Counted from the stretch's first letter, positions 8,782-26,620 are shown. The stretch: 64,000 nt of DNA from Acidimicrobiia bacterium (GCA_040878325.1 JBBDMM010000016.1:62001-126000); one strand, 5' to 3'. Notes: a model not told the origin generated them from the sequence alone. Made by a program: numbers and translations.

Positions 8782-9538
8782 AAGTCGGAGGCCGCTTTTC
8801 GAGAAAGGCTGCCACCCCCTCCCGTGCATCCTCGGTCTCGAACGCCTTGCGGAAGCCGGCTGCCTCGATAGCGAGACCGTCGCCGAGGCGCATCGAGAAC
8901 CCGTCGTCGATCACGTCCTTCGCGATCGCCATCGCCACCGTGGCTCCTGCCGCCAACTCGTCGGCCAGCGCCCGCGCCGCGGCGTCGAGCTCCTCTTCCG
9001 GCACCACTCGATCGGCCAGTCCCCACGCCAGGGCGGTGGGGGCATCGATCATCCGCCCGGTCAACACCAGGTCTTTGGCCCGGCCGACCCCCACCAGGCG
9101 GGTGAGGCGCTGGGTGCCGCCGGCGCCGGGGATCACCCCGAGCTTGATCTCCGGCTGTCCAACCCTCGCGCCCTCGGACAGCACGCGAAGGTCGCACGCC
9201 ATCGCCAACTCGAGACCGCCACCCAGGGCGAACCCGCGGACTGCAGCGATCACTGGCTTGGGAAGCGCGGCGAGGGTGTTGAGGGCCTGCCCCAGTTCGA
9301 CACCGAGACTCGCTCCACTACCGCCTGAGTCCATCGCCGCCTTGAACTCGGCGATGTCGGCCCCTGCGGCGAAGTGGGGGGAACCGGTGACGACCACCGC
9401 CCGCACGGCCCCCGCGGATGATCGATCGATTGCCGCCTCCAGATCGGCGACCAATTGCCCTGACAGAGCATTCACCGGAGGACGGTCGAGGGTGATGACC
9501 GCGACTGCGCCGTCCGCCTGGTAGCGAACCAATGACAT
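8768..9538 (-). CDS. Enoyl-CoA hydratase/isomerase
   Basis: LDRPPVNAL, FAAGADI, ALGGGLELAMACD, PEIKLGVIPGAGGTQRL. Confidence 0.95.
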   Translation of the reverse strand: MSLVRYQADGAVAVITLDRPPVNALSGQLVADLEAAIDRSSAGAVRAVVVTGSPHFAAGADIAEFKAAMDSGGSGASLGVELGQALNTLAALPKPVIAAVRGFALGGGLELAMACDLRVLSEGARVGQPEIKLGVIPGAGGTQRLTRLVGVGRAKDLVLTGRMIDAPTALAWGLADRVVPEEELDAAARALADELAAGATVAMAIAKDVIDDGFSMRLGDGLAIEAAGFRKAFETEDAREGVAAFLEKRPPTFKGR

Positions 9539-9618
9539 CTGCTTCTCCCGATCGGGTGCGGTGATTGTGACCGCTGCAAGGTCGGATGTCAGATGTCCGC
9601 CCGGTCCCGAGCCGATGC

Positions 9619-10557
9619 TCAGGCGCCATCCGCCAGTCTCCGGGCGGCGGTCCAAGGATCGAGATCACCCGCCACCACAGCACTCGTCACCTCGCCCCCC
9701 TTCGCGGCGAGGTCGATAGCCCGGTCCCTGAGGAACTCCACTAGAGCCGTCTCGAGTTCGACGCGACGGCGGCGGCCCCGGTCGGCATCAAGGCCCTCCG
9801 ACCCGAGATGCTCGCGGTGGGCGGCGACGGCCGCCCACACCTGGTCGACACCCGCGCCGGTCGTGCCCACGGTCTGGATGATCGGTGGATCCCACCCCGT
9901 CGCCTCGCCGAGCGCCAGCATCGCCCGCAACTCGGAGGCCGCGTCCTGCGCCCCGGGCCGATCTGCCTTGTTCACGACGAACACGTCGCCGATCTCGAGG
10001 ATCCCTGCCTTGGCCGCCTGGATGCCGTCACCCCATCCCGAGGTGACCACCACGATCACGGTGTCCGCCGCGGCGGCGATCTCGACCTCGTCCTGGCCGA
10101 CGCCGACGGTCTCGACGACCACCCAGGGAAATTGCGCGACCTCCAATGCGAGCAGTGCTTTGGGGGCGGCAGCCGACAAGCCGCCGAGGTGCCCTCGAGT
10201 GGCCATCGATCGGATGTAGACCCCCTGATCGAGGATGTGGTCCTGCATCCGAACCCGATCGCCGAGGACAGCTCCACCCGAGAAAGGACTGGTGGGGTCG
10301 ACTGCCAATACGGCGATCTCGTCTCCTCCCGCCCGGGCCAGGCGGATCAGACCATCCGTGAGGGTGGATTTCCCCGACCCCGGGGCTCCGGTGATCCCGA
10401 TCCGATGCGACGGCATTGCCGCCGCGAACGCGATCGGGAGAATCGCGTCGTAGCCCGCCCGCCGATCCTCCAGAATCGAGATCAGGCGGGCCAGGGCCCG
10501 ACGATCCCCAGCCGCGACGGCGTCGACGAGCGCGGCCGGGGTCGGAAGAGCGGGCAC
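9619..10557 (-). CDS. meaB: Methylmalonyl-CoA mutase-associated GTPase MeaB/ArgK
   Basis: GITGAPGSGKST, AVDPTSPFSGGAVLGDRVRM, ETVGVGQ, NKAD. Confidence 0.95.
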   Translation of the reverse strand: MPALPTPAALVDAVAAGDRRALARLISILEDRRAGYDAILPIAFAAAMPSHRIGITGAPGSGKSTLTDGLIRLARAGGDEIAVLAVDPTSPFSGGAVLGDRVRMQDHILDQGVYIRSMATRGHLGGLSAAAPKALLALEVAQFPWVVVETVGVGQDEVEIAAAADTVIVVVTSGWGDGIQAAKAGILEIGDVFVVNKADRPGAQDAASELRAMLALGEATGWDPPIIQTVGTTGAGVDQVWAAVAAHREHLGSEGLDADRGRRRRVELETALVEFLRDRAIDLAAKGGEVTSAVVAGDLDPWTAARRLADGA

Positions 10558-12454: not shown

Positions 12455-12925
12455 ATGCGCATCGCCATCGCCGCCGACCACGCCGGGTACGAACTGAAGG
12501 AGCACCTGGCGCGACTGGTCGCCGACGCGGGCCACGCAGTCACCGATCTCGGCACCCATTCGCCCGACCCCGTCGACTACCCCGACTACGCCGCGGCCGT
12601 GGGTCGGGCCGTGGTGTCGGGTCGGGTAGACCGCGGCATCGTGGTGTGCGGATCGGGTGCGGGGGCAGCCATCGTGGCGAACAAGATCCCCGGCATTCGG
12701 GCCGCCGTCGCCCACGACACCTACACCGCTCACCAGAGCGTCGAGCACGACGACGTGAACGTGCTCGCCCTCGGCAGCCGCGTGGTCGGCGAGAGCCTCG
12801 CCGAGGAGCTGGTCAAAGCGTTCCTCGAATCGCGCTTCAGCGGCGCCGAACGCCATGTACGAAGGGTGGCGAAGATCACCGCCCTCGAAGATCAAGAGTC
12901 AAGAATCAAGAGCCAAGACTCTTGA
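12455..12925 (+). CDS. rpiB: Ribose-5-phosphate isomerase B (canonical copy)
   Basis: ADHAG, DYPD, CGSGAG with catalytic Cys, ANKIPGIRAA, RHVRRV. Confidence 0.93.
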   Translation: MRIAIAADHAGYELKEHLARLVADAGHAVTDLGTHSPDPVDYPDYAAAVGRAVVSGRVDRGIVVCGSGAGAAIVANKIPGIRAAVAHDTYTAHQSVEHDDVNVLALGSRVVGESLAEELVKAFLESRFSGAERHVRRVAKITALEDQESRIKSQDS

Positions 12926-12943
12926 CTCTTGACTCTTGGCTCC
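12892..12943. repeat. Inverted heptamer array (TCAAGAR)n / (CTCTTGR)n
   Basis: tcaagag tcaagaa tcaagag ccaaga followed by ctcttga ctcttga ctcttgg; overlaps the rpiB stop. Confidence 0.9.
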
Positions 12944-12960: not shown

Positions 12961-15440
<2,480 letters not shown>

Positions 15441-15444
<4 letters not shown>

Positions 15445-18287: not shown

Positions 18288-18983
18288 ATGCGAATCCGGG
18301 TATTCAACAGCGCCGAGGCCCTCGCCGACGCCGCCGCCGACGAGGTGGAGGCGTGGCTCCGCATCGTTGCCGATCCCCGAACCATTGGTCTCGCCGGTGG
18401 CAATACGCCCCGCCGCACCTATGAGCTACTGGCCACCCGCCGCCTCGGATGGTCGGACATCGACGGATGGCTCACCGACGAGCGCCATGTCCCCCGCAAC
18501 CACGAGGACAGCAACGCCGGAATGATCCGCCGTGCCCTGTTCGATCAGGTGCCGGCAACGCTCCATGAAATTCCCTGGGACGAGGCGCCCGATGCCGCCG
18601 CCAGCTACGAGTCAACCCTGCGACAGGTCCTGCCAGCGGGACCGAATGGGCGTCCCCAGCCCGGCCTGGTGCTGCTCGGAGTCGGCGACGACGGCCACAC
18701 CGCTTCGCTGTTCCCGGGGTCCCCCGTGCTCGAGGAGGTGGAACGTGACTTCGTCGCCATCGAGGTTCCCGGCCGGGGCTGGCGGTTCACTGCGACGATC
18801 CCGATGCTGGCGCGGGCACGGCGGACCTTGTTCCTCGTATCGGGGGCCGCGAAGGCGGACATCGTCGCCGAGATCCTCGAAGGCACGAGCGACCTTCCCG
18901 CCGCCCGGGTTTCCCAGGCGAGCCGCGACGCAATGTGGCTGCTGGATGCCGCCGCAGCCTCGCGGCTCCACGACTACTCCTGA
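18288..18983 (+). CDS. pgl: 6-phosphogluconolactonase
   Basis: LAGGNTP, DERHVP, SN, LLGVGDDGHTASLFP. Confidence 0.9.
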   Translation: MRIRVFNSAEALADAAADEVEAWLRIVADPRTIGLAGGNTPRRTYELLATRRLGWSDIDGWLTDERHVPRNHEDSNAGMIRRALFDQVPATLHEIPWDEAPDAAASYESTLRQVLPAGPNGRPQPGLVLLGVGDDGHTASLFPGSPVLEEVERDFVAIEVPGRGWRFTATIPMLARARRTLFLVSGAAKADIVAEILEGTSDLPAARVSQASRDAMWLLDAAAASRLHDYS

Positions 18984-18991
18984 CGCCGGCT

Positions 18992-19381
18992 CTACTCCGC
19001 CAAGCCAAGCAGTCCGATCAGGTAGCGGGACACCGCGCTGTCCGGATCGAGATCGGCACGGCGGAAGGCCTCCGCTTGCAGGGCCCCGAGTTCGCACTCC
19101 AACGCCACTGCCCGCGCGTCGAGGGCATCGCCTTGCTGGTGGAGGGCGACCAGGGGCTCGGGCCATGTCTCCGGATCGGCCACCGTCGCGGCGGGAGTGT
19201 CGTCGAGCACTTCGATCAAGATCTCGAACCAGCCCGCCATGTCTTCGGCCAGCCGGTCGCAGGTGTCATCGACAATCGTGGTCGTCGTAGTCGGACCCGG
19301 CGGTGCGGTAGTGGGTGGCGCGACGGTCCCCGAGTCGCAAGCAGCGACGAGGACGACAAGCAGAAGAGCAGCACGCTTCAC
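18992..19381 (-). CDS. Hypothetical lipoprotein
   Basis: Lipobox LVAAC, Thr/Pro linker, helical domain with two further Cys. Confidence 0.7.
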   Translation of the reverse strand: MKRAALLLVVLVAACDSGTVAPPTTAPPGPTTTTTIVDDTCDRLAEDMAGWFEILIEVLDDTPAATVADPETWPEPLVALHQQGDALDARAVALECELGALQAEAFRRADLDPDSAVSRYLIGLLGLAE

Positions 19382-19404
19382 GATCAGAGCGTAGGAAGGA
19401 AATT

Positions 19405-19577
19405 GGCGTCTCCCCCCGGCCTCCGGGGGAGTACCCCGAAGGGGGGAGGGGGCAGCTGACCCTGCGAGCAGGACTGGAGCCGGGTCTTAAGAAGTCGTGA
19501 GACCGCACGCTGTCTCCGCTGCCCCCTCCGCCTCGCTTCGCTCGGCACCTCCCCCGCCGACGGCAGGGGAGGACGCC
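19405..19577. repeat. REP-like paired inverted-repeat element downstream of the BMC operon
   Basis: GGCGTCTCCCC (19405) pairs with GGGGAGGACGCC (19566-19577); GGAGGGGGCAGC (19445-19456) pairs perfectly with GCTGCCCCCTCC (19518-19529); contains CCTCGCTTCGCTCGG. Confidence 0.8.
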
Positions 19578-19590
19578 CGGCGGGCGGCTG

Positions 19591-19878
19591 TCAGACCTCG
19601 ACCGACTCCCCATCCACCTGCAACTCATCGACTATTCCGACGATCACCGAACGGATCGGCGCGGTGGTGTTACCGACCACTTGCCGCGCCGAGTTTCCTT
19701 CATCCACGATGAGCACCATCTCCCCGGCGCCGGCCCCGACGGTGTCGACGCAGATCAGGTATCCCCCGGTGTCGGCCCCACCGGCGTCGAGCAAGTCACA
19801 GATCAGCAGGCGGCGGTTGTCGAAGATCGGGTGGTTGATCGTCGAGACGACATTCCCCGCGACCCTTCCGAGCTTCAC
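19591..19878 (-). CDS. BMC vertex protein BMC-P (EutN/CcmL family)
   Basis: GRVAGNVVST...DTVGAGAGEMVL...IVGIVD. Confidence 0.95.
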   Translation of the reverse strand: MKLGRVAGNVVSTINHPIFDNRRLLICDLLDAGGADTGGYLICVDTVGAGAGEMVLIVDEGNSARQVVGNTTAPIRSVIVGIVDELQVDGESVEV

Positions 19879-20147
19879 GAGGACCGCTCCACGTGGTCGA
19901 CGATGCCCACGATGGCGTGGTCCACGGGCACGAACTGCACCGGCATCGCCAACGCCGCCTCGCGGCTGCTCACGATGTAGACCAGCTCGCCAGGGCCGGC
20001 CATCGCCACCGCGTCGGCGGCGACCACCGGCTGGCCATCGGGCTCCTGCTCCCGGTCGAGCGGTTGAACGAGCAGGAACCGAACGCCGTCGAGCCCCTCG
20101 TACTTGACGGTCGCCACGACCGTGCCGATCACCTCAGCGAGCTGCAT
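19875..20147 (-). CDS. BMC vertex protein BMC-P (EutN/CcmL family)
   Basis: MQLAEVIGTVVATVK...AAD...AGPGELV...PVDHAIVGIVD. Confidence 0.95.
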   Translation of the reverse strand: MQLAEVIGTVVATVKYEGLDGVRFLLVQPLDREQEPDGQPVVAADAVAMAGPGELVYIVSSREAALAMPVQFVPVDHAIVGIVDHVERSS

Positions 20148-20727
20148 CATCCCTCCCCAGGCGATCACTGAAGTGCCGCCCTGCCAAGAGGTTGTTCCCC
20201 ATCTCACTGTGGAGCTGAGGAATCACCAACGCCGCGACCAGTGACTCCGCCGCGATCCGTCCGGCCCCCGCCGCCACTGCGGCCTCGACGTCGGAGAGGG
20301 CACCACAGAAAAGGGAGTAGGCCTTGCCGCCCAGCCCGTCGGCGAGGTGAAGCTCCATCAAGAAGACGCCGGCGCCCTTGACGGCGGCGTCGGATGCCTC
20401 GATGGTCGCGGCAACGGTTCGTGTCTCGATCACGCCGAGGGACTCGCCCGACCCCGGGACCCGGACGCCTCGCACCGCTTCGATGACGGCGGGGTGAACG
20501 TCGGTGAGCAGTACCTCGTCCAGCAGCGACGCCGGGGAGGATGCCCTGCCGGCAGCCATCGCCTCCTCGACGTCGGCGACCTCGCCGGTCACGAGGACGA
20601 GGTAGTTGCCCGGATGCACCGTGCCCGCAACGAGTTCGGCCACCGCACCGCGTTTGACCATGGCGTCGCCGGCTCGGATACCTGCTGCCACCGATCCGAA
20701 TTCGAGAAGCCCGATTGCCGGGTTCAC
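20134..20727 (-). CDS. BMC-T shell protein, PduT-like tandem domain
   Basis: AIGLLEFGSVAAGIRAGDAMVK...TVHPGNY...SLGVIET...ASDAAVK...GLGGK; two BMC domains. Confidence 0.92.
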   Translation of the reverse strand: MNPAIGLLEFGSVAAGIRAGDAMVKRGAVAELVAGTVHPGNYLVLVTGEVADVEEAMAAGRASSPASLLDEVLLTDVHPAVIEAVRGVRVPGSGESLGVIETRTVAATIEASDAAVKGAGVFLMELHLADGLGGKAYSLFCGALSDVEAAVAAGAGRIAAESLVAALVIPQLHSEMGNNLLAGRHFSDRLGRDDAAR

Positions 20728-20729
20728 GG

Positions 20730-22181
20730 TCAGACGATCCTCAGGGCGCCGACCACCGAGATCCGACGCTCCCGGGTGAAGGTGATCGGACGGGTCATGC
20801 CGTCACCGCTCGGGCTGGCGATCGAGAACGAGGTGAACCCCTCACCGCCCTGACCGAGCCCGGCATAGTTGGGCCCGTTGGCGATGAAGATCGACACATT
20901 GATCGAACGCGCCATCCGGGTGATCGTCGACACATTGGTCGAGTGGATCGAGGCGGTATGGCGGAAGCGGTGCTCTGAGGCGATCGCCAGCTCGATGGCG
21001 GCACCTACGTCGGGCACCCGGGTAACGGGCAGGACGGGCATCATCTGCTCGGTCCAAACGAGGCTGTGCTCGTTGGGGACCTCTGCGACCAGCAACCGCG
21101 GGTCCCCGTCGACATCGACCCCGGCCGCAGCAGCGATGTCGCGGGCGTTCTTCCCGATCCACGACCGGTTGATCACCCCCGGCTTCCCGGCGGGGCCCAT
21201 CGTCTCGAAGATCACCCGCTCCACCTTGCGGAGTTCATGTTCCTTGAGCACGTACGCGCCTTGGCGTCCCATCGCCCGCACCAGGTCGTCGGCGATGGCC
21301 CGCACCGCGATGACCGTCTTCTCGTCAGTGCAGATGACGTTGTTGTCGAAAGATGCCCCGGCGACGATGTCGCGGGCGGCCTTCTCGATGTCGGCGGTCT
21401 CATCGACCACGGCAGGTGGATTGCCCGGTCCGGCGGTGATCGCCCGCTTGTCCGTTTTCAGGGCCTCACGAACCACCGCCGGCCCTCCGGTGACAAGCAG
21501 CACCCGGACCTGGGGATGCTGCATCAGCGCCTGGGCGCTCTCGATGGTCGGCTCGGGGATGGCCGTGACCAGGTTGCTCGGACCCCCGGCGGCGAGGATC
21601 GCCCGGTTTATGAGGCGGATGTTCTCGGCGGACACCCGCTTTGCGTTGGGATGGACGTTGAAGACGACGCCGTTGCCGCCGCTGAGTACTGCAATCGTGT
21701 TGTTGATGATCGTCGAGGTGGGATTGGTGGTGGGAGTGACCGCCCCGATGAGTCCGAAGGGGGCGTGCTCGGTGACCATCATGCCGCTTGATCCAGTCTC
21801 GATCAGCGGTGCGAGATCCTCCGGACCGGGGGTGCGGGTCGCCACCAGGATGTTCTTGCGGATCTTGTCCTCGACCCTGCCCAGACCGGTCTCGGCGTGA
21901 GCCGCCTCGGCGAGATACTCGGCCTTCTCCACCATCGACTTGCGGATCGACGCGATGACGGCCTCGTGCAGATCCGTGCCGGCGGCGGCATACGTTCGCT
22001 GAGCGGCCTCGGCGGCATTCACCGCCTCGTCGATCGTGCCGAAGATGCCCTCACCGAGGGCCGCGTCCGGGATCGCCGCGGGAATCCGGGGGTTGGTCGG
22101 TAGCCGATCCGGCGTGCCGCCGAGACGCTCGCGCACCCGGGCGATGACCGCCTGGACCTCTTGCTCGCTGAACTTTGTCAC
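20730..22181 (-). CDS. CoA-acylating aldehyde dehydrogenase (EutE/PduP family) with N-terminal encapsulation peptide
   Basis: [34 protein letters not shown] (catalytic Cys), GLGQGGEG; N-terminal [16 protein letters not shown] followed by a Pro-rich linker. Confidence 0.95.
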
Positions 22182-22465
22182 TTGGTGAACTTCACTTCGC
22201 CGCCGACCTCCCAGGTGTCGACGATCGCCATCACCACGGCATCGCAGGGCCGGTCCCTGGTCGCCTCGGTCTGCCGGGCGGAGGATCCGGTGGCGAACAT
22301 GACGACCTCACCGACACCCGCGCCCACCGCGTCCGCCGCGATCACGTACCCGCCGGAGTCGTCACCTTCGACGTCGACTTGTTTGATCACGAGGAATTTG
22401 AGCCCCTCCATCGTGGGCTCTTTCTCGCTGGCGACGAGTGTCCCCGCGACGCGGCCGAGTAGCAC
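22178..22465 (-). CDS. BMC vertex protein BMC-P (EutN/CcmL family)
   Basis: [12 protein letters not shown]...[11 protein letters not shown]...GSSAR...DAVVMAIVD. Confidence 0.96.
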
Positions 22466-22483
22466 GAGGTGCTCCCCGCCTTT

Positions 22484-22786
22484 CTAGGAAGACTCCGCCG
22501 CGGCCTCGTCGGCCCGGCCGAGCGGGAGGATCATGTCGATGTTGACGTGGGGGCGGGCGATGACGTGAGTGGAAACCACTTCGCCGACCTTCTCCGCACC
22601 ACGAACCCCGGCATCGATCGCCGCCTTGACGGCGGCAACGTCCCCGCGCACGACGGCAGTCACGTAGCCGCCGCCGGTCTTCTCGTACGACACGAGTTCG
22701 ACCTTGGCGGCCTTCACCATCGCGTCCGCCGCCTCGACCATCGCGGCAAAACCGCGGGTCTCGATCATTCCGAGTGCTTCAGCCAT
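22484..22786 (-). CDS. BMC-H hexameric shell protein
   Basis: ALGMIETRG...[11 protein letters not shown]...[10 protein letters not shown]...[10 protein letters not shown]...HVIARPH; ATG 22786. Confidence 0.97.
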
Positions 22787-22820
22787 GGGCTTTCGCTGTT
22801 CCTTTCTTTCCTTGAACCGA

Positions 22821-23447
22821 TCAAGTGGCTTCGCGGCCCTCGAGGCCCTCGAGCGCCCCGACCGCCGCGCGCCACCCGACATCGATGTCGCTCTCCTCGC
22901 CCCCGAGATAGACGCGCCCTAGCGATCCGAACGACCGCACCTCGAGCACGTTGATGTTCGCCGCCTTCTCTGCCTCGTTGGCGGCCAACGGGGCATAGGA
23001 GGCAGGTTCCATCTCGAGCACATAGAGCGTCTGACCAGGGATGAGCATCTGGCCGTGCCTCATCCTGTTGATCAACTGCGCCTGGTGATCGTCGACCCGG
23101 CGGATGATCTGGCTCGAGGCAATACGGGGTTTGATCCGGTCACTCTCCGATGCCCCAATGTCCTCGAGGATCGCCGCTCCCGCCGCCCGCACCTCGGCCT
23201 GCGACGGTGAATGGATCTCGAGAAGGCCGAAAAATCGCTCGACGATCTGCATCCCGGGCTTCACCTGCGTCGACTTCAGGGCGACGTCGGTAACCCGGTT
23301 GATCTCGATGCCCGGAGAGATCTCGATGTAGAGAGAAGCGTCCCCCGCCAGCGGGAGAAAGCCCTGGGCCACCGTGCCCAGGAACGCCGCGTACTGGGGC
23401 TGCAGGCTGTCCAGGAACGAATAGCCCCGGAGGTCAATACCGCTCAC
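22821..23447 (-). CDS. BMC-Tdp stacked/gated trimeric shell protein (CcmP/CsoS1D-like)
   Basis: [13 protein letters not shown]...[17 protein letters not shown]...[11 protein letters not shown]...[10 protein letters not shown]...GRVYLGG. Confidence 0.93.
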
Positions 23448-24291
23448 TCGTTGTCCCTCCCGTCACGATCTGAACTCCTGCCGATGCACCGATCCTCGTC
23501 GCTCCGGCAGCAATCATCTGCCGGACGTCGTCGGCGTTGCGGATTCCGCCCGACGCCTTGACCCCGACCTTGGGGCCTACTGCCTCCCTCATCAACGCCA
23601 CGTCGTACACCGTGGCGCCACCGCCCCCGAAACCGGTCGAGGTCTTCACGAAGTCTGCCTTGGCTTTCACGGCCAATCGCGATCCGATCACCTTCTCTTC
23701 GTCGGTGAGCATGGCAGTTTCGAGTATCACCTTGCACACCGCTCCGGCCTCGCGGCAGGCCTCGGCCACCCCGGCGACGTCGCGCTCGACGAGAGAGTGG
23801 TCTTGCGACTTGAGCGCACCCACGTTGATGACCATATCGATTTCACGGGCGCCGTCGCGGATCGCCCGGCGGGCCTCCATGGCCTTGATCTCCGGCATAG
23901 ATGCCCCGAACGGGAAGCCCACCACGGCACACGCCACCACATCGGAGCCCTTGAGATTGTCGGCGACCCGTTTGACCCAGTACGGATTGACGCAGACGGA
24001 AGCGAACCCATACTCCCGCGCCTCGGTGCACATGCGGTCGATCTCGGCGGTGGTGGCATCGGGGCGGAGAAGCGTGTGGTCGATGAATCCCGCCAGGTCG
24101 GTTGGCACGTCGGCCCCGAGTCCGTTGAACGACACCCGGGTGGCACCGGCAGCCAGCACCGACCGCACTTTGTCGGCAGAGTGGGCGACGCAGTCACCGA
24201 CACAGGCAAGGCAGTCATCCCAGGACTCGCCGGCCACCGCGGCCAGCACTTCCCGCGTGATCGCCTCGATCAGCTCGTCGCGCTCGCTCAT
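23434..24291 (-). CDS. deoC: Deoxyribose-phosphate aldolase with N-terminal encapsulation peptide and Cys-containing extension
   Basis: [34 protein letters not shown] (Schiff-base Lys), KASGGIR, RIGAS; ATG 24291 overlaps the upstream stop. Confidence 0.95.
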
Positions 24292-24881
24292 ACCGCCTCC
24301 CCCATGCGCCGGCGGGCATCGAGGGCCTCGATCATCGCCACCCGGCGAGCATGGCGCCCCTCGCCCCAGGGCGTGGCGAGCCACTCCTCGACGATCTGCC
24401 ACGCCAGCGTCTCCCCGATCAGCCCGGCGCCGAGCGTGAGCACATTGGCGTGATTGTGTTCCCGGCTGTTGCGCGCCGAGGACAGGTCGTAACAGAGCGC
24501 CGCCCTCACCCCCGCCACCTTGTTGGCGACCATCGCCGACCCGATGCCGGCCCCGTCGATCACGATGCCGGCAACGCATTCCCCGGAAGCCACTTTTTCG
24601 GCGACCGCCAACGCAAAGTCGGGATAGTCGACCGCCTCGGACGAATCCGTGCCGCAGTCGACCACCTCGCGGCCGGTTTCGCGCAACCGGAACCCGATCC
24701 GCTCTTTGAGGCGGAAGCCCCCGTGGTCGGCCCCGATGGCGATCTTGCCGGCGACCGATACGCCCGCGCCACTCTCTGCCGAGGGCGCGGCAGCGGGCTG
24801 GTTGGAGGAGGCGACCGAATCGACGACGCGCGTCACGAGAGCGCGCACGTCCTCTTCGCTTGGAAGTTGGCGGCCGGGCAC
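24288..24881 (-). CDS. BMC-associated RpiB/LacAB-family sugar-phosphate isomerase with N-terminal encapsulation peptide
   Basis: [39 protein letters not shown]; leader [16 protein letters not shown] plus Ala/Pro/Ser linker. Confidence 0.92.
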
Positions 24882-24928
24882 ATTCGATTATCCCACGCCG
24901 CCGCGGGGGAAGCGGGATGAGGGGCAGG

Positions 24929-24989
24929 AGTCAAGAATCAAGAATCAAGAATCTTTCTGGCTCTTGGCTCTTGACTCTCGATTCTCTTG
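24929..24989. repeat. Inverted heptamer array (TCAAGAA)3 / (CTCTTGR)n
   Basis: tcaagaa x3, then ctcttgg ctcttga ctctcga, in the divergent intergenic region. Confidence 0.9.
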
Positions 24990-25003
24990 CGTAACCTCTC
25001 GGC

Positions 25004-25636
25004 ATGTCCGACCCTGCCTTCACCTGGGATCGACGGCCGGGCCCGAGCGAGCAGAAGCGGAAGACCCGCCACGAGGTGCCGGCCGAGCCGGCGCCGCCGC
25101 TCGGCGGCCGGATCACGCTCAAGGAGGCCGAGCACCGGTTCGGAGTTTCGGTGGGCACGCTGCGCTCGTGGGCCCGCGATGGGGCGGTCGACGCGGTCAA
25201 GGCCGACGGGCCGAACGGCCGCCAATGGATGATCACCGCCGAGTCGGTGGCCCATCGGATTTCTCATCGTGCGGGAAGCCCCCCGCCCGCTCCTCGAGAG
25301 GGGGCCACCGGCCCGACGGCCGACGGGACGGCGATGCTGGTACCCCGCGACGCCTGGGACCGCCTGATGGACCAATTGGGGAACATCCACGAAGCAGGCC
25401 TGATGCTGTCCGAGGCACGCGAACGGGCCGCCCGCGCCGAAACCGAAGCCGAGTTCCTCCGCGAACGTCTCGGCGAGATCCGCACCGAACGCGACGAGCT
25501 CAGGGCGGCGACCAGGACCAGGGAGATACCCCAGCCGACGGTGACGCCGGCCCCTCGAACGGCTCCGGCGGCCCCAACCCGGAGGCCCACCGCGTGGGAC
25601 ATGGCCAAGCGCTGGTGGCGCGGCGGTCAAGGCTGA
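25004..25636 (+). CDS. MerR/excisionase-type HTH plus coiled-coil protein
   Basis: ITLKEAEHRFGVSVGTLRSWARDG HTH; EARERAARAETEAEFLRERLGEIRTERDEL coiled coil; C-terminal WDMAKRWWRG. Confidence 0.8.
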   Translation: MSDPAFTWDRRPGPSEQKRKTRHEVPAEPAPPLGGRITLKEAEHRFGVSVGTLRSWARDGAVDAVKADGPNGRQWMITAESVAHRISHRAGSPPPAPREGATGPTADGTAMLVPRDAWDRLMDQLGNIHEAGLMLSEARERAARAETEAEFLRERLGEIRTERDELRAATRTREIPQPTVTPAPRTAPAAPTRRPTAWDMAKRWWRGGQG

Positions 25637-25643
25637 CAAGAGA

Positions 25644-25679
25644 TCTTGACTCTTGACTCTTGACTCTCGAATCTTGACT
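25644..25679. repeat. Heptamer array (TCTTGAC)n
   Basis: tcttgac x3, tctcgaa, tcttgac just after the HTH gene stop. Confidence 0.9.
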
Positions 25680-25708
25680 GTTTTCCCCGCCACTACCGTC
25701 ATCACCGC

Positions 25709-26620
25709 ATGGACCGCCCTCCGATCATCTCCGTCACGGACCTGCGGTTCGCCTACGGCAACATCGTCGCCATCGACGGAGTAAGCCTCGAGATCCCCCC
25801 CGGCCGTATCGGTTTGGTGGGCGCCAACGGCGCCGGCAAGACAACCCTGCTCAAGATCCTGCTTGGGGTACTGCCGGCGGCTTCCGGCCAGGTCGCAGTG
25901 CTCGGGCACGACGTCGCCACCCGGCAGCTCGATGTCCGCGCCCGGGTCGGGTGGATGCCGGAGGGAAACTGCATGCCTCCCGACCAGACTGCCGCCGACT
26001 TCCTCGGGTACGCCGCCGAACTGGGTGGGCTGCCGGTACGAGCGGCGCGGCAGCGCGCTAGCGACGTGCTCGGCCTGGTCGGCCTCCACGAGGAGCGCTT
26101 CCGTTTCATCGGCGAGTTCTCCACCGGCATGAAACAACGCGCCAAGTTGGCCCAGGCGATCGTCCACGACCCGCAGCTGGTCCTCCTCGACGAGCCCACT
26201 GCCGGCCTCGACCCCGAAGGACGGGAGGAGATGCTCGATCTCGTCACCCGGCTGGAGGACTTCGGGATCAATGCGGTCATCTCCTCGCATGTGTTGACCG
26301 ACATTGAACGGACTTGCGAGTGGGTCATCATGCTCGACGGCGGCAAGGTGCTGCGATCCGGGCCGCTGACCGATTTGTCGACCACCGATGAAGTCGAATT
26401 GGAGGTCATCGGCGACAGCGCCGCAGTGGTTGCCGTTGCCCAGCGGTTGGGGGCGACGGTCGAGCTGGTGGGCTCGGTGCTCCACCTGACTGCCACCGAT
26501 CGGGACGCCTTCGAGATCGCCAGAGATGCCCTGGCGGAAGTCGGGGCCCCGCTGCGAAGGCTCGCCGCCAAACGGACCACCCTCGAGGACGTATTCATGG
26601 GGGAGGGTTCGAATGGCTGA
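25709..26620 (+). CDS. ABC transporter ATP-binding protein
   Basis: GANGAGKT, FSTGMKQR, LLDEPT, SSH. Confidence 0.95.
   Translation: MDRPPIISVTDLRFAYGNIVAIDGVSLEIPPGRIGLVGANGAGKTTLLKILLGVLPAASGQVAVLGHDVATRQLDVRARVGWMPEGNCMPPDQTAADFLGYAAELGGLPVRAARQRASDVLGLVGLHEERFRFIGEFSTGMKQRAKLAQAIVHDPQLVLLDEPTAGLDPEGREEMLDLVTRLEDFGINAVISSHVLTDIERTCEWVIMLDGGKVLRSGPLTDLSTTDEVELEVIGDSAAVVAVAQRLGATVELVGSVLHLTATDRDAFEIARDALAEVGAPLRRLAAKRTTLEDVFMGEGSNG

Follow-up and report, generated by a model that had tools for sequence, protein, structure and literature searches.

Bacterial microcompartments (BMCs) of the sugar-phosphate utilisation (SPU) class are defined by a DeoC-type pfam01791 protein, an RpiB-type pfam02502 protein and an aldehyde dehydrogenase (AldDH) encoded beside shell genes, and have been divided into seven subtypes (Sutter 2021, PMC8217296). 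For the SPU3 subtype, supplementary file 4 of that study gives as enzymes only the AldDH and pfam02502 followed by pfam01791, together with N-terminal encapsulation peptides (EPs), one standard BMC-H, a BMC-P triplet, a CcmP-like BMC-Tdp and a BMC-Ts that lacks PduS and the pore Cys, and it includes Actinobacteria among the phyla. In a curation of 206 SPU loci, supplementary file 4 lists seven Actinobacteria under SPU3, with 'Acidimicrobiia bacterium EX267_' among them (Dwyer 2024, PMC11585597). The only SPU enzymes characterised so far are those of SPU6 from Chloroflexi bacterium GWB2_54_36, whose deoxyribose-5-phosphate aldolase (DERA) is active on deoxyribose-5-phosphate (deoxyribose-5-P) and forms a complex with its RpiB-like partner in vitro (PMC11585597). 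A related system is the HO BMC, described for Haliangium ochraceum, of whose shell solved chains are found in the PDB entries 5djb, 5v74, 5v76 and 5dih, and for 40 similar loci. The HO loci have the BMC-P triplet in common with SPU loci and contain BMC-Tdp types like theirs, CcmP-like Tdp proteins occur in HO, MIC3, SPU2 and SPU3, the HO AldDH stands next to those of SPU5 and SPU7, and HO has been suggested to handle nucleic-acid sugars too (PMC8217296). Here we describe a nine-gene operon in a 64,000-nucleotide stretch of DNA (the window) from an Acidimicrobiia bacterium (GCA_040878325.1, JBBDMM010000016.1:62001-126000). In our reading, to which we give a probability of roughly 0.85, it is an intact SPU3-type BMC operon that processes deoxyribose-5-P via a shell-enclosed DERA and AldDH.

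The operon occupies positions 19591-24881 on the minus strand. Open reading frames (ORFs), Pfam and NCBIfam bear out nine contiguous genes in the order RPI-DERA-Tdp-H-P-AldDH-Ts-P-P (RPI, RpiB-like protein), which is the order and tight spacing that the original prediction, made from the sequence of the window, had given. The genes are listed here in the direction of transcription.

24288..24881, minus strand: RpiB-like protein, 197 aa; PF02502 over residues 47-184, 176.9 bits
23434..24291, minus strand: DERA/DeoC, deoxyribose-5-phosphate aldolase, 285 aa; TIGR00126 equivalog, 271.4 bits against a cut-off of 117.3; PF01791
22821..23447, minus strand: BMC-Tdp, double-stacking pseudohexamer type, CcmP-like, 208 aa; two BMC domains
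22484..22786, minus strand: BMC-H hexamer protein, 100 aa; PF00936, 103.8 bits
22178..22465, minus strand: BMC-P pentamer protein 1 (P1), 95 aa; PF03319, 94.5 bits
20730..22181, minus strand: CoA-acylating AldDH of the EutE/PduP type, 483 aa; PF00171; NF011927, 600.3 bits against a cut-off of 403
20134..20727, minus strand: BMC-Ts, tandem-BMC trimer protein with a PduT-like fold; PF00936 in two stretches
19875..20150, minus strand: BMC-P pentamer protein 2 (P2), 90-91 aa; PF03319, 90.3 bits
19591..19878, minus strand: BMC-P pentamer protein 3 (P3), 95 aa; PF03319, 87.1 bits

The starts were re-read from the sequence, which placed that of DERA at 24291 (not the longest ORF), that of BMC-H at 22786 and that of P2 at 20147 or 20150. 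Start and stop codons overlap or nearly abut, as had been predicted: RPI and DERA overlap by 4 nt in an ATGA, DERA and Tdp by 14 nt, and Ts and P2 by 14-17 nt, while GTGA overlaps join P1 to AldDH and P2 to P3. The remaining gaps are at most 34 nt (Tdp/H, 34 nt; H/P1, 18 nt; AldDH/Ts, 2 nt). All nine reading frames are intact, and a profile search of the host genome (2.21 Mb, 98.9% complete) found no shell genes beyond the operon. An Rfam search over 18900-25800 with E values up to 0.1 returned zero matches, and a promoter and terminator scan of 18900-25100 gave one promoter-like and three terminator-like sites, no more than in shuffled sequences.

The gene content supports the earlier assignment to the SPU class from DeoC, RpiB and AldDH, because PF01791/TIGR00126, PF02502 and PF00171/NF011927 genes are contiguous with PF00936 and PF03319 genes. 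Within the class, the enzyme set and the order of pfam02502 before pfam01791 are those of SPU3, with no PTAC or PduS in the genome. The N-terminal EP feature is represented by conserved amphipathic helices on AldDH and DERA, for which targeting is predicted. The genome encodes one BMC-H, which has the KAAK edge and an ARPH edge one residue off the PRPH of the published supplement. Three distinct BMC-P paralogues are present, a putative counterpart of the SPU3 triplet; CcmP is the best solved match of the Tdp; and the Ts has His at the PduT pore column, with no RnfC_N match in the genome. Every testable SPU3 feature was found, and the locus has no defining difference from SPU3; the assignment is a probable one made on descriptive features, the formal definition of the subtypes being by colour-clade hidden Markov models. 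Besides the ARPH edge, the differences are that RPI and DERA are separate genes in the window and are fused in 12-20 published SPU3 loci (PMC8217296, PMC11585597), and that in this order the operon has a lineage-specific, divergent HTH_17-like companion gene. The locus is therefore not novel, since SPU3 is already described and listed in the same lineage (PMC8217296, PMC11585597), which the original prediction had itself named as the outcome that would remove novelty. Its view of the class as little characterised experimentally is likewise dated by the SPU6 DERA assay and DERA-RPI complex (PMC11585597).

The comparison with SPU6 shows what is common to both subtypes. The SPU6 DERA also bears an N-terminal helix plus linker and keeps its catalytic residues, its RpiB-like partner resembles that of the window in bearing an EP at the N terminus and in having Asp where RpiB has its catalytic residue Cys, and both loci hold a BMC-P triplet and a Tdp (PMC11585597). 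However, the EP of the SPU6 AldDH is C-terminal (section 7 of Dwyer 2024), whereas that of the window AldDH is N-terminal. SPU6 also has different BMC-H and Tdp clades and a GntR-type regulator, and the representative operon listed for it has no Ts (PMC11585597).

All three cargo proteins, DERA, AldDH and the RpiB-like protein, carry N-terminal amphipathic helices, which probably target them to the shell. In DERA, a 64-residue extension consists of a helix (residues 3-21) and a variable linker that contains Cys and His. The best solved relatives in the PDB are DERAs that align from residue 65 onward, and an AlphaFold2 model shows the same helix 3-21, with a predicted local distance difference test score (pLDDT) below 50 for residues 21-60 and above 90 for the barrel. 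The catalytic residues D152, K216 and K245, which we take, following Dwyer 2024 and the motifs, to correspond to D102, K167 and K201 of the E. coli enzyme, are invariant in 34 of 34 sequences. This DERA is the sole DeoC match in the host genome. The AldDH has an amphipathic helix at about residues 5-20 followed by a Pro-rich linker. Its best PDB matches, 5jfl and 4c3s, are BMC-associated acylating dehydrogenases, the active-site Cys column is kept, and the extension is N-terminal, as the PDB and NCBIfam alignments reach residues 482 and 483 of 483.

The linker of the window DERA holds a Cys/His cluster, C-x2-C-x3-C-x2-H (24117-24221, residues about 24-58), between helix and barrel. A conserved Fe-S or Zn site is unsupported as a general feature: the extension has 0 to 4 Cys among orthologues, often as C-x2-C-x3-C-x3-C in Chloroflexota and some Actinomycetota, the first Cys is Tyr in six family members, and the model confidence of the region is below 50. 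The passages of Dwyer 2024 on cysteine, Fe-S or zinc contain no mention of such a cluster (PMC11585597). Two orthologous DERA genes, at L144 (G030:C68) and L084, contain an in-frame stop, from either sequencing error or a pseudogene.

The RpiB-like protein combines an amphipathic helix at about residues 8-24, which has the top helical hydrophobic moment among 183 windows, with a Pro/Ala-rich linker. Asp109 stands at the position of the RpiB catalytic Cys, in a DGAGIGS motif that is invariant in 25 of 25 orthologues, and the protein scores 149.6 bits on TIGR01120, above the cut-off of 138.65. A housekeeping RpiB of 156 aa is encoded 12 kb away (12455-12925, plus strand); it is without the extension, has the catalytic Cys in VVCGSG, is 47% identical to the BMC copy and is syntenic in relatives. 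A complex prediction for DERA and the RpiB-like protein scored 0.07 against a mark of 0.32, which speaks neither for nor against binding. All SPU RPIs are described as having Asp for the catalytic Cys (PMC11585597), and by analogy with SPU6 the window protein may be mainly a partner or scaffold of DERA, not a pathway enzyme.

Among the shell proteins, BMC-H has the H. ochraceum shell protein HO-5815 as its best PDB match, with 74 of 92 aligned residues identical by count on the alignment, and it has a GGG pore and KAAK and ARPH edges. For P1, the best PDB match is found in the Haliangium shell entry 5v74, with its pentamer chain of the EutN/CcmL type (118 bits, 58/95 identical). The three BMC-P paralogues are 34-40% identical to one another (P1/P2, 32/89; P1/P3, 38/94; P2/P3, 30/89). 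The Tdp aligns end to end with CcmP of the beta-carboxysome (4ht5, 282.6 bits), ahead of the Haliangium-shell chains 5v76 (253 bits) and HO-5816 in 5v74 (232 bits), and scores 333.2 bits on the CcmP model NF053796, slightly below its cut-off of 340; the window has no carboxysome context. The Ts aligns with PduT (3vcd, 128.8 bits) over residues 1-184, end to end, and reaches only 86 bits with the Haliangium BMC-T chain 5dih. The window has no Pdu context, and the Ts has His at the pore column where PduT has Cys. The earlier description of this protein as PduT-like thus holds for the best match but not for the pore Cys. In PduT, the pore Cys ligates a 4Fe-4S cluster. In 42 rows from DERA-containing loci, the column is His in 27, Gln in 12, Ser in 2, Asn in 1 and Cys in none, whereas HO-type rows have Ser, Cys or Thr. 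The idea that the pore His replaces the PduT Cys as a metal ligand is weakened because His alternates with Gln.

The likeness to Haliangium raises the alternative that an HO-type BMC was acquired from myxobacteria and then joined to sugar-phosphate enzymes as a new hybrid. The BMC-H count, the P1 match to 5v74 and the core order Tdp-H-P-AldDH-Ts, which is the same as in eight myxobacterial-type loci, speak for it, and the likeness extends to a single BMC-H, three BMC-P paralogues and an N-terminal EP on the AldDH (PMC8217296), with identities of about 80% for BMC-H and about 61% for P1. The H. ochraceum gene order used here is a putative one, taken from PDB molecule names and loci of myxobacterial metagenome-assembled genomes (MAGs). 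However, the main locus of HO type I holds shell proteins and AldDH only, with at most a pfam00596 aldolase, and has no DERA or RpiB-like gene, whereas the window operon is headed by both; in HO, the two extra BMC-P genes lie apart, in a satellite locus that also encodes a class II aldolase (PMC8217296). The Tdp is nearest to CcmP and the Ts to PduT, not to Haliangium 5dih.

The distribution of the cassette argues further against such a hybrid. A scan with BMC-H over one genome per species found more than 563 relatives, from which 80 loci were kept and their gene order determined by tblastn of the nine window proteins. BMC-H is 67-89% identical to the BMC-H of these loci, which come from many phyla, and the proteins of Chloroflexota, Acidobacteriota and other Acidimicrobiia, at 82-89%, equal or exceed the likeness to Haliangium. 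The identical nine-gene order was found in 25 of the 80 loci under at least 11 phylum labels (Actinomycetota, Chloroflexota, Acidobacteriota, Verrucomicrobiota, Lentisphaerota, Marinimicrobia, Krumholzibacteriota, Gammaproteobacteria, Myxococcota, Gemmatimonadota and one 'Methanosarcinales' bin), and about 11 more have it interrupted by contig ends; these phyla are those listed for SPU3 (PMC11585597). Only Tdp-H-P-AldDH-Ts, the HO pattern, is present in 8 of the 80, mostly myxobacterial. The shared core order is a trait of a widespread cassette, not an oddity of the window genome, so the Haliangium-type shell is not special. The BMC-H peptide given in the original prediction is present, and BMC-H, BMC-P and the Tdp-H-P-AldDH-T order do resemble Haliangium-type loci, but the combination is not an unusual one, the shell likeness is common to loci of many phyla, and the link between HO and SPU had already been stated (PMC8217296).

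An AldDH tree (66 rows; IQ-TREE quick search, LG+G4, SH-like approximate likelihood ratio test, SH-aLRT), which left out loci with an AldDH match below 85% of the query or holding a stop, places the window in a 12-row clade of its own family (SH-aLRT 100). This lies within a 29-row clade (98) of own-order genomes, named Acidimicrobiia/Actinomycetota bins and three Chloroflexota; the named bins nested among the own-order genomes are labelled Acidimicrobiia, in support of the taxonomic guess of the original prediction. The next clade out has 50 rows (99), 47 of which come from DERA-containing loci and 3 from short contigs. A separate clade of 16 rows holds seven of the eight myxobacterial DERA-less rows with a complete AldDH, where the HO-type rows are myxobacterial MAG loci, not H. 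ochraceum, SPU5 or SPU7 references. Membership of HO thus fails on the DERA and RpiB-like genes in the locus and on the position of the AldDH in the SPU3-like clade of DERA-containing loci. With the locus also syntenic in 17 of 17 relatives (below) and SPU3 in Actinobacteria already published (PMC11585597), we consider a myxobacterial hybrid very improbable, and retain the SPU3 assignment. The tree also holds two observations of a different kind. The AldDHs of three Chloroflexota loci (L025, L046 and L047) lie inside the Actinomycetota clade (98), and the remaining proteins of their operons share 57-87% identity with those of the window, which suggests that the whole cassette was transferred between Chloroflexota and Actinomycetota. 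The locus L078 (JAIWHF010000058.1), binned as 'Methanosarcinales archaeon', has the full nine-gene order, and its AldDH stands among Chloroflexota and Gemmatimonadota (100); mis-binning of a bacterial contig is the most likely explanation.

A synteny survey in Acidimicrobiia, which the original prediction had proposed, showed that the operon is old and vertically inherited in the lineage, not a recent import. The nine genes in order, with their flanks (sodN-murJ-ABC transporter-HTH / operon / lipoprotein-pgl-hydrolase-ppk-rpiB-murA), are kept in 17 of 17 relatives fetched, at protein identities of 55-100%. In an even sample of the class, BMC-H was matched in 60 of 301 genomes (E up to 1e-25), at 76% identity or more in 55 of them, and 59 of the 60 fall in the window's own order. 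By group, it was found in 9/10 (f1), 19/21 (f2), 7/7 (f12), 3/3 (f6), 3/3 (f7), 2/2 (f11) and 15/39 (f4) genomes. Among 41 relatives, 35 have a BMC-H match, of which that in genome G023 is spurious, and 31 encode DERA including the N-terminal extension, with two more split over contig ends. In one relative, G003, no extended DERA was found, and 619 nt separate its BMC-H from the end of the contig. Where BMC-H is lacking, in six relatives, DeoC is present only in a short form that aligns from residue 56-96 with 39-50% identity; these relatives include G039, which is flagged unpublished, and number five without it. We found no paper on BMCs as an order-wide trait of Acidimicrobiia, in a search that covered sources outside the subscription journals; two papers that name both Acidimicrobiia and microcompartments do no more than cite a study of Verrucomicrobia. 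The same conservation bears on the possibility that the operon is a silent relic, or runs in the synthetic direction from acetyl-CoA to acetaldehyde and, with glyceraldehyde-3-P, to deoxyribose-5-P. Both reactions are reversible in principle, but the nine frames are intact, identity is kept across the relatives, the junctions are translationally coupled, and cells are known to obtain deoxyribose by reducing ribonucleotides, not through DERA; we regard this possibility as extremely improbable.

A natural deletion of the shell was found in G023, a 92% complete genome of the same family as the window, in which genome profile searches gave no PF00936 or PF03319 match and no HTH gene. Its syntenic site is gap-free and reads ppk-pgl-lipoprotein-[DERA]-ABC transporter, so that the shell, RpiB-like, AldDH and HTH genes are gone and a lone DERA remains. 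Its congener G014 has the full operon and, right after the last BMC-P, a fragment of a second DERA. The two features are as follows.

L152 (G023:C13:19500-38500), about 9102-9938, minus strand: lone DERA of G023, at the syntenic site
L139:7299-7418, minus strand: DERA C-terminal fragment in the congener G014, 40 residues

The G023 enzyme is 60% identical to the window DERA from residue 23 on and is without the helix and the Cys motif. The G014 fragment is identical to the G023 DERA at 33 of 40 positions and to the operon DERA of its own genome at 29 of 38. A reciprocal loss, of the encapsulated DERA in one congener and of the free one in the other, would account for this pattern, a reading that is tentative because the fragment is short. 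The G023 deletion also connects three features with the shell, again tentatively: the HTH gene, the RpiB-like gene and the targeting helix.

The proposed function follows the chemistry of the original prediction, which agrees with the published SPU model (PMC8217296, PMC11585597). The shell, built of one BMC-H, a CcmP-like Tdp, a Ts and three BMC-P proteins, would likely enclose DERA and AldDH. DERA would cleave DNA-derived deoxyribose-5-P to glyceraldehyde-3-P and acetaldehyde, and AldDH would trap the acetaldehyde as acetyl-CoA. NAD(H), CoA and acetyl-CoA may cross the shell via the large gated pore of the Tdp, a passage proposed because no recycling enzyme is encoded; transit through Tdp is the hypothesis put forward for PTAC-less subtypes (Dwyer 2024, PMC11585597). 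The substrate could come from thymidine and purine nucleoside phosphorylases, followed by a candidate phosphomutase or a ribokinase-like kinase. A thymidine phosphorylase (NF004490, 559 bits) and a purine nucleoside phosphorylase (NF006054, 352 bits) are indeed encoded side by side in the host genome (C18:68809-70928). A 568-aa protein of the phosphohexomutase family (C18:135423-137129) is a candidate substitute for phosphopentomutase, and a ribokinase-like PfkB, with 278.8 bits against a cut-off of 299.65, is a candidate supply kinase.

Several points weigh against this reading. Deoxyribose-5-P as the substrate is suggested by family membership, and the 98.9%-complete genome gave no match to the canonical phosphopentomutase deoB (TIGR01696), which by standard markers leaves a gap in the route to deoxyribose-5-P. 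PTAC (PF06130) and RnfC_N/PduS (PF13375) have no match anywhere in the genome and the operon contains no alcohol dehydrogenase gene, which leaves cofactor recycling explained only by transit through the Tdp. The SPU6 homologue of the RpiB-like protein shows little ribose-5-P isomerase activity (PMC11585597). To these are added the descriptive basis of the subtype assignment and the composition of the HO-type rows in the tree, both given above, and the basis of the regulator assignment given below.

Another sugar phosphate could be the substrate instead, with the RpiB-like protein a true isomerase that uses Asp as its base and feeds or drains the aldolase. Its score above the rpiB equivalog cut-off, its retention of the other conserved columns, the missing deoB and the function left open for it by Dwyer 2024 (PMC11585597) are consistent with such a role. 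However, the aldolase is clearly a DeoC equivalog, in which the catalytic Asp and Lys columns do not vary, and in SPU6 the DERA acts on deoxyribose-5-P while its RPI partner has hardly any activity on ribose-5-P (PMC11585597). In addition, a lone free DERA stands for the whole operon in G023 and a decayed free DERA lies beside the intact operon in G014, a pattern which suggests that DERA chemistry is the function kept. We consider an isomerase pathway on another sugar phosphate unlikely, and deoxyribose-5-P the probable substrate of the SPU3 operon.

One further gene accompanies the operon.

25004..25636, plus strand: HTH_17-like gene, divergent from the operon, 210 aa, start uncertain; PF12728, 26.8 bits against a cut-off of 27

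This helix-turn-helix (HTH) gene lies next to the operon, in divergent orientation, in all 17 relatives fetched, and occurs in 33 of the 41 relatives and in none of the six shell-less ones. Its product is a candidate for a regulator of the operon that is specific to the lineage, as judged from adjacency and from co-occurrence among kin, which are non-independent. Intergenic arrays of palindromic heptamers, (RYCAAGA)n followed by (TCTTGRY)n, lie at 24928-24985, 25644-25680 and 12891-12940. A simple regular expression applied to all contigs counts 102 of them genome-wide, several at contig ends. They occur at the same spot in G001, of the same genus, and the loci of 16 other relatives, the congener G002 among them, lack them. 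The palindromes flanking the HTH gene were rejected as its operators on account of these 102 copies and of their lack in the loci of 16 of 17 relatives; they look like a strain- or species-level dispersed hairpin repeat of the kind of repetitive extragenic palindromes or miniature inverted-repeat transposable elements. Elsewhere in the window, a polyphosphate kinase 1 with a C-terminal NUDIX fusion (12961-15444, plus strand; 827 aa, PF00293 over residues 701-819) was observed.

Much of what the operon shows is already in print, namely the SPU3 type, its distribution in Actinobacteria, the likeness to the Haliangium shell and the proposed chemistry (PMC8217296, PMC11585597), and the operon matters mainly as annotation and opens no new question. 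The small additions made here are the sole DeoC in the operon, the co-occurring divergent HTH gene and the shell deletion in a sister genome. On the most far-reaching reading, the SPU3 organelle would be a core, vertically inherited and syntenic trait of the order, with a sole DeoC, a lineage-specific HTH regulator and a reciprocal-loss pair, a composite picture whose chances we put at slightly under even. If true, encapsulated and free DERA would be interchangeable, and the RpiB-like protein would serve the organelle, not metabolism. The added value lies in the candidate regulator, and the shell-loss relative supports a role of the RpiB-like protein and the N-terminal helices in serving the organelle. 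The compact single-locus operon of nine genes, without satellite genes, suits heterologous expression. The SPU3 trait is nearly universal in the window's family, with genomes of about 2-3 Mb, and for the host organism a complete, probably functional SPU3 metabolosome points to the use of DNA-derived deoxyribose.

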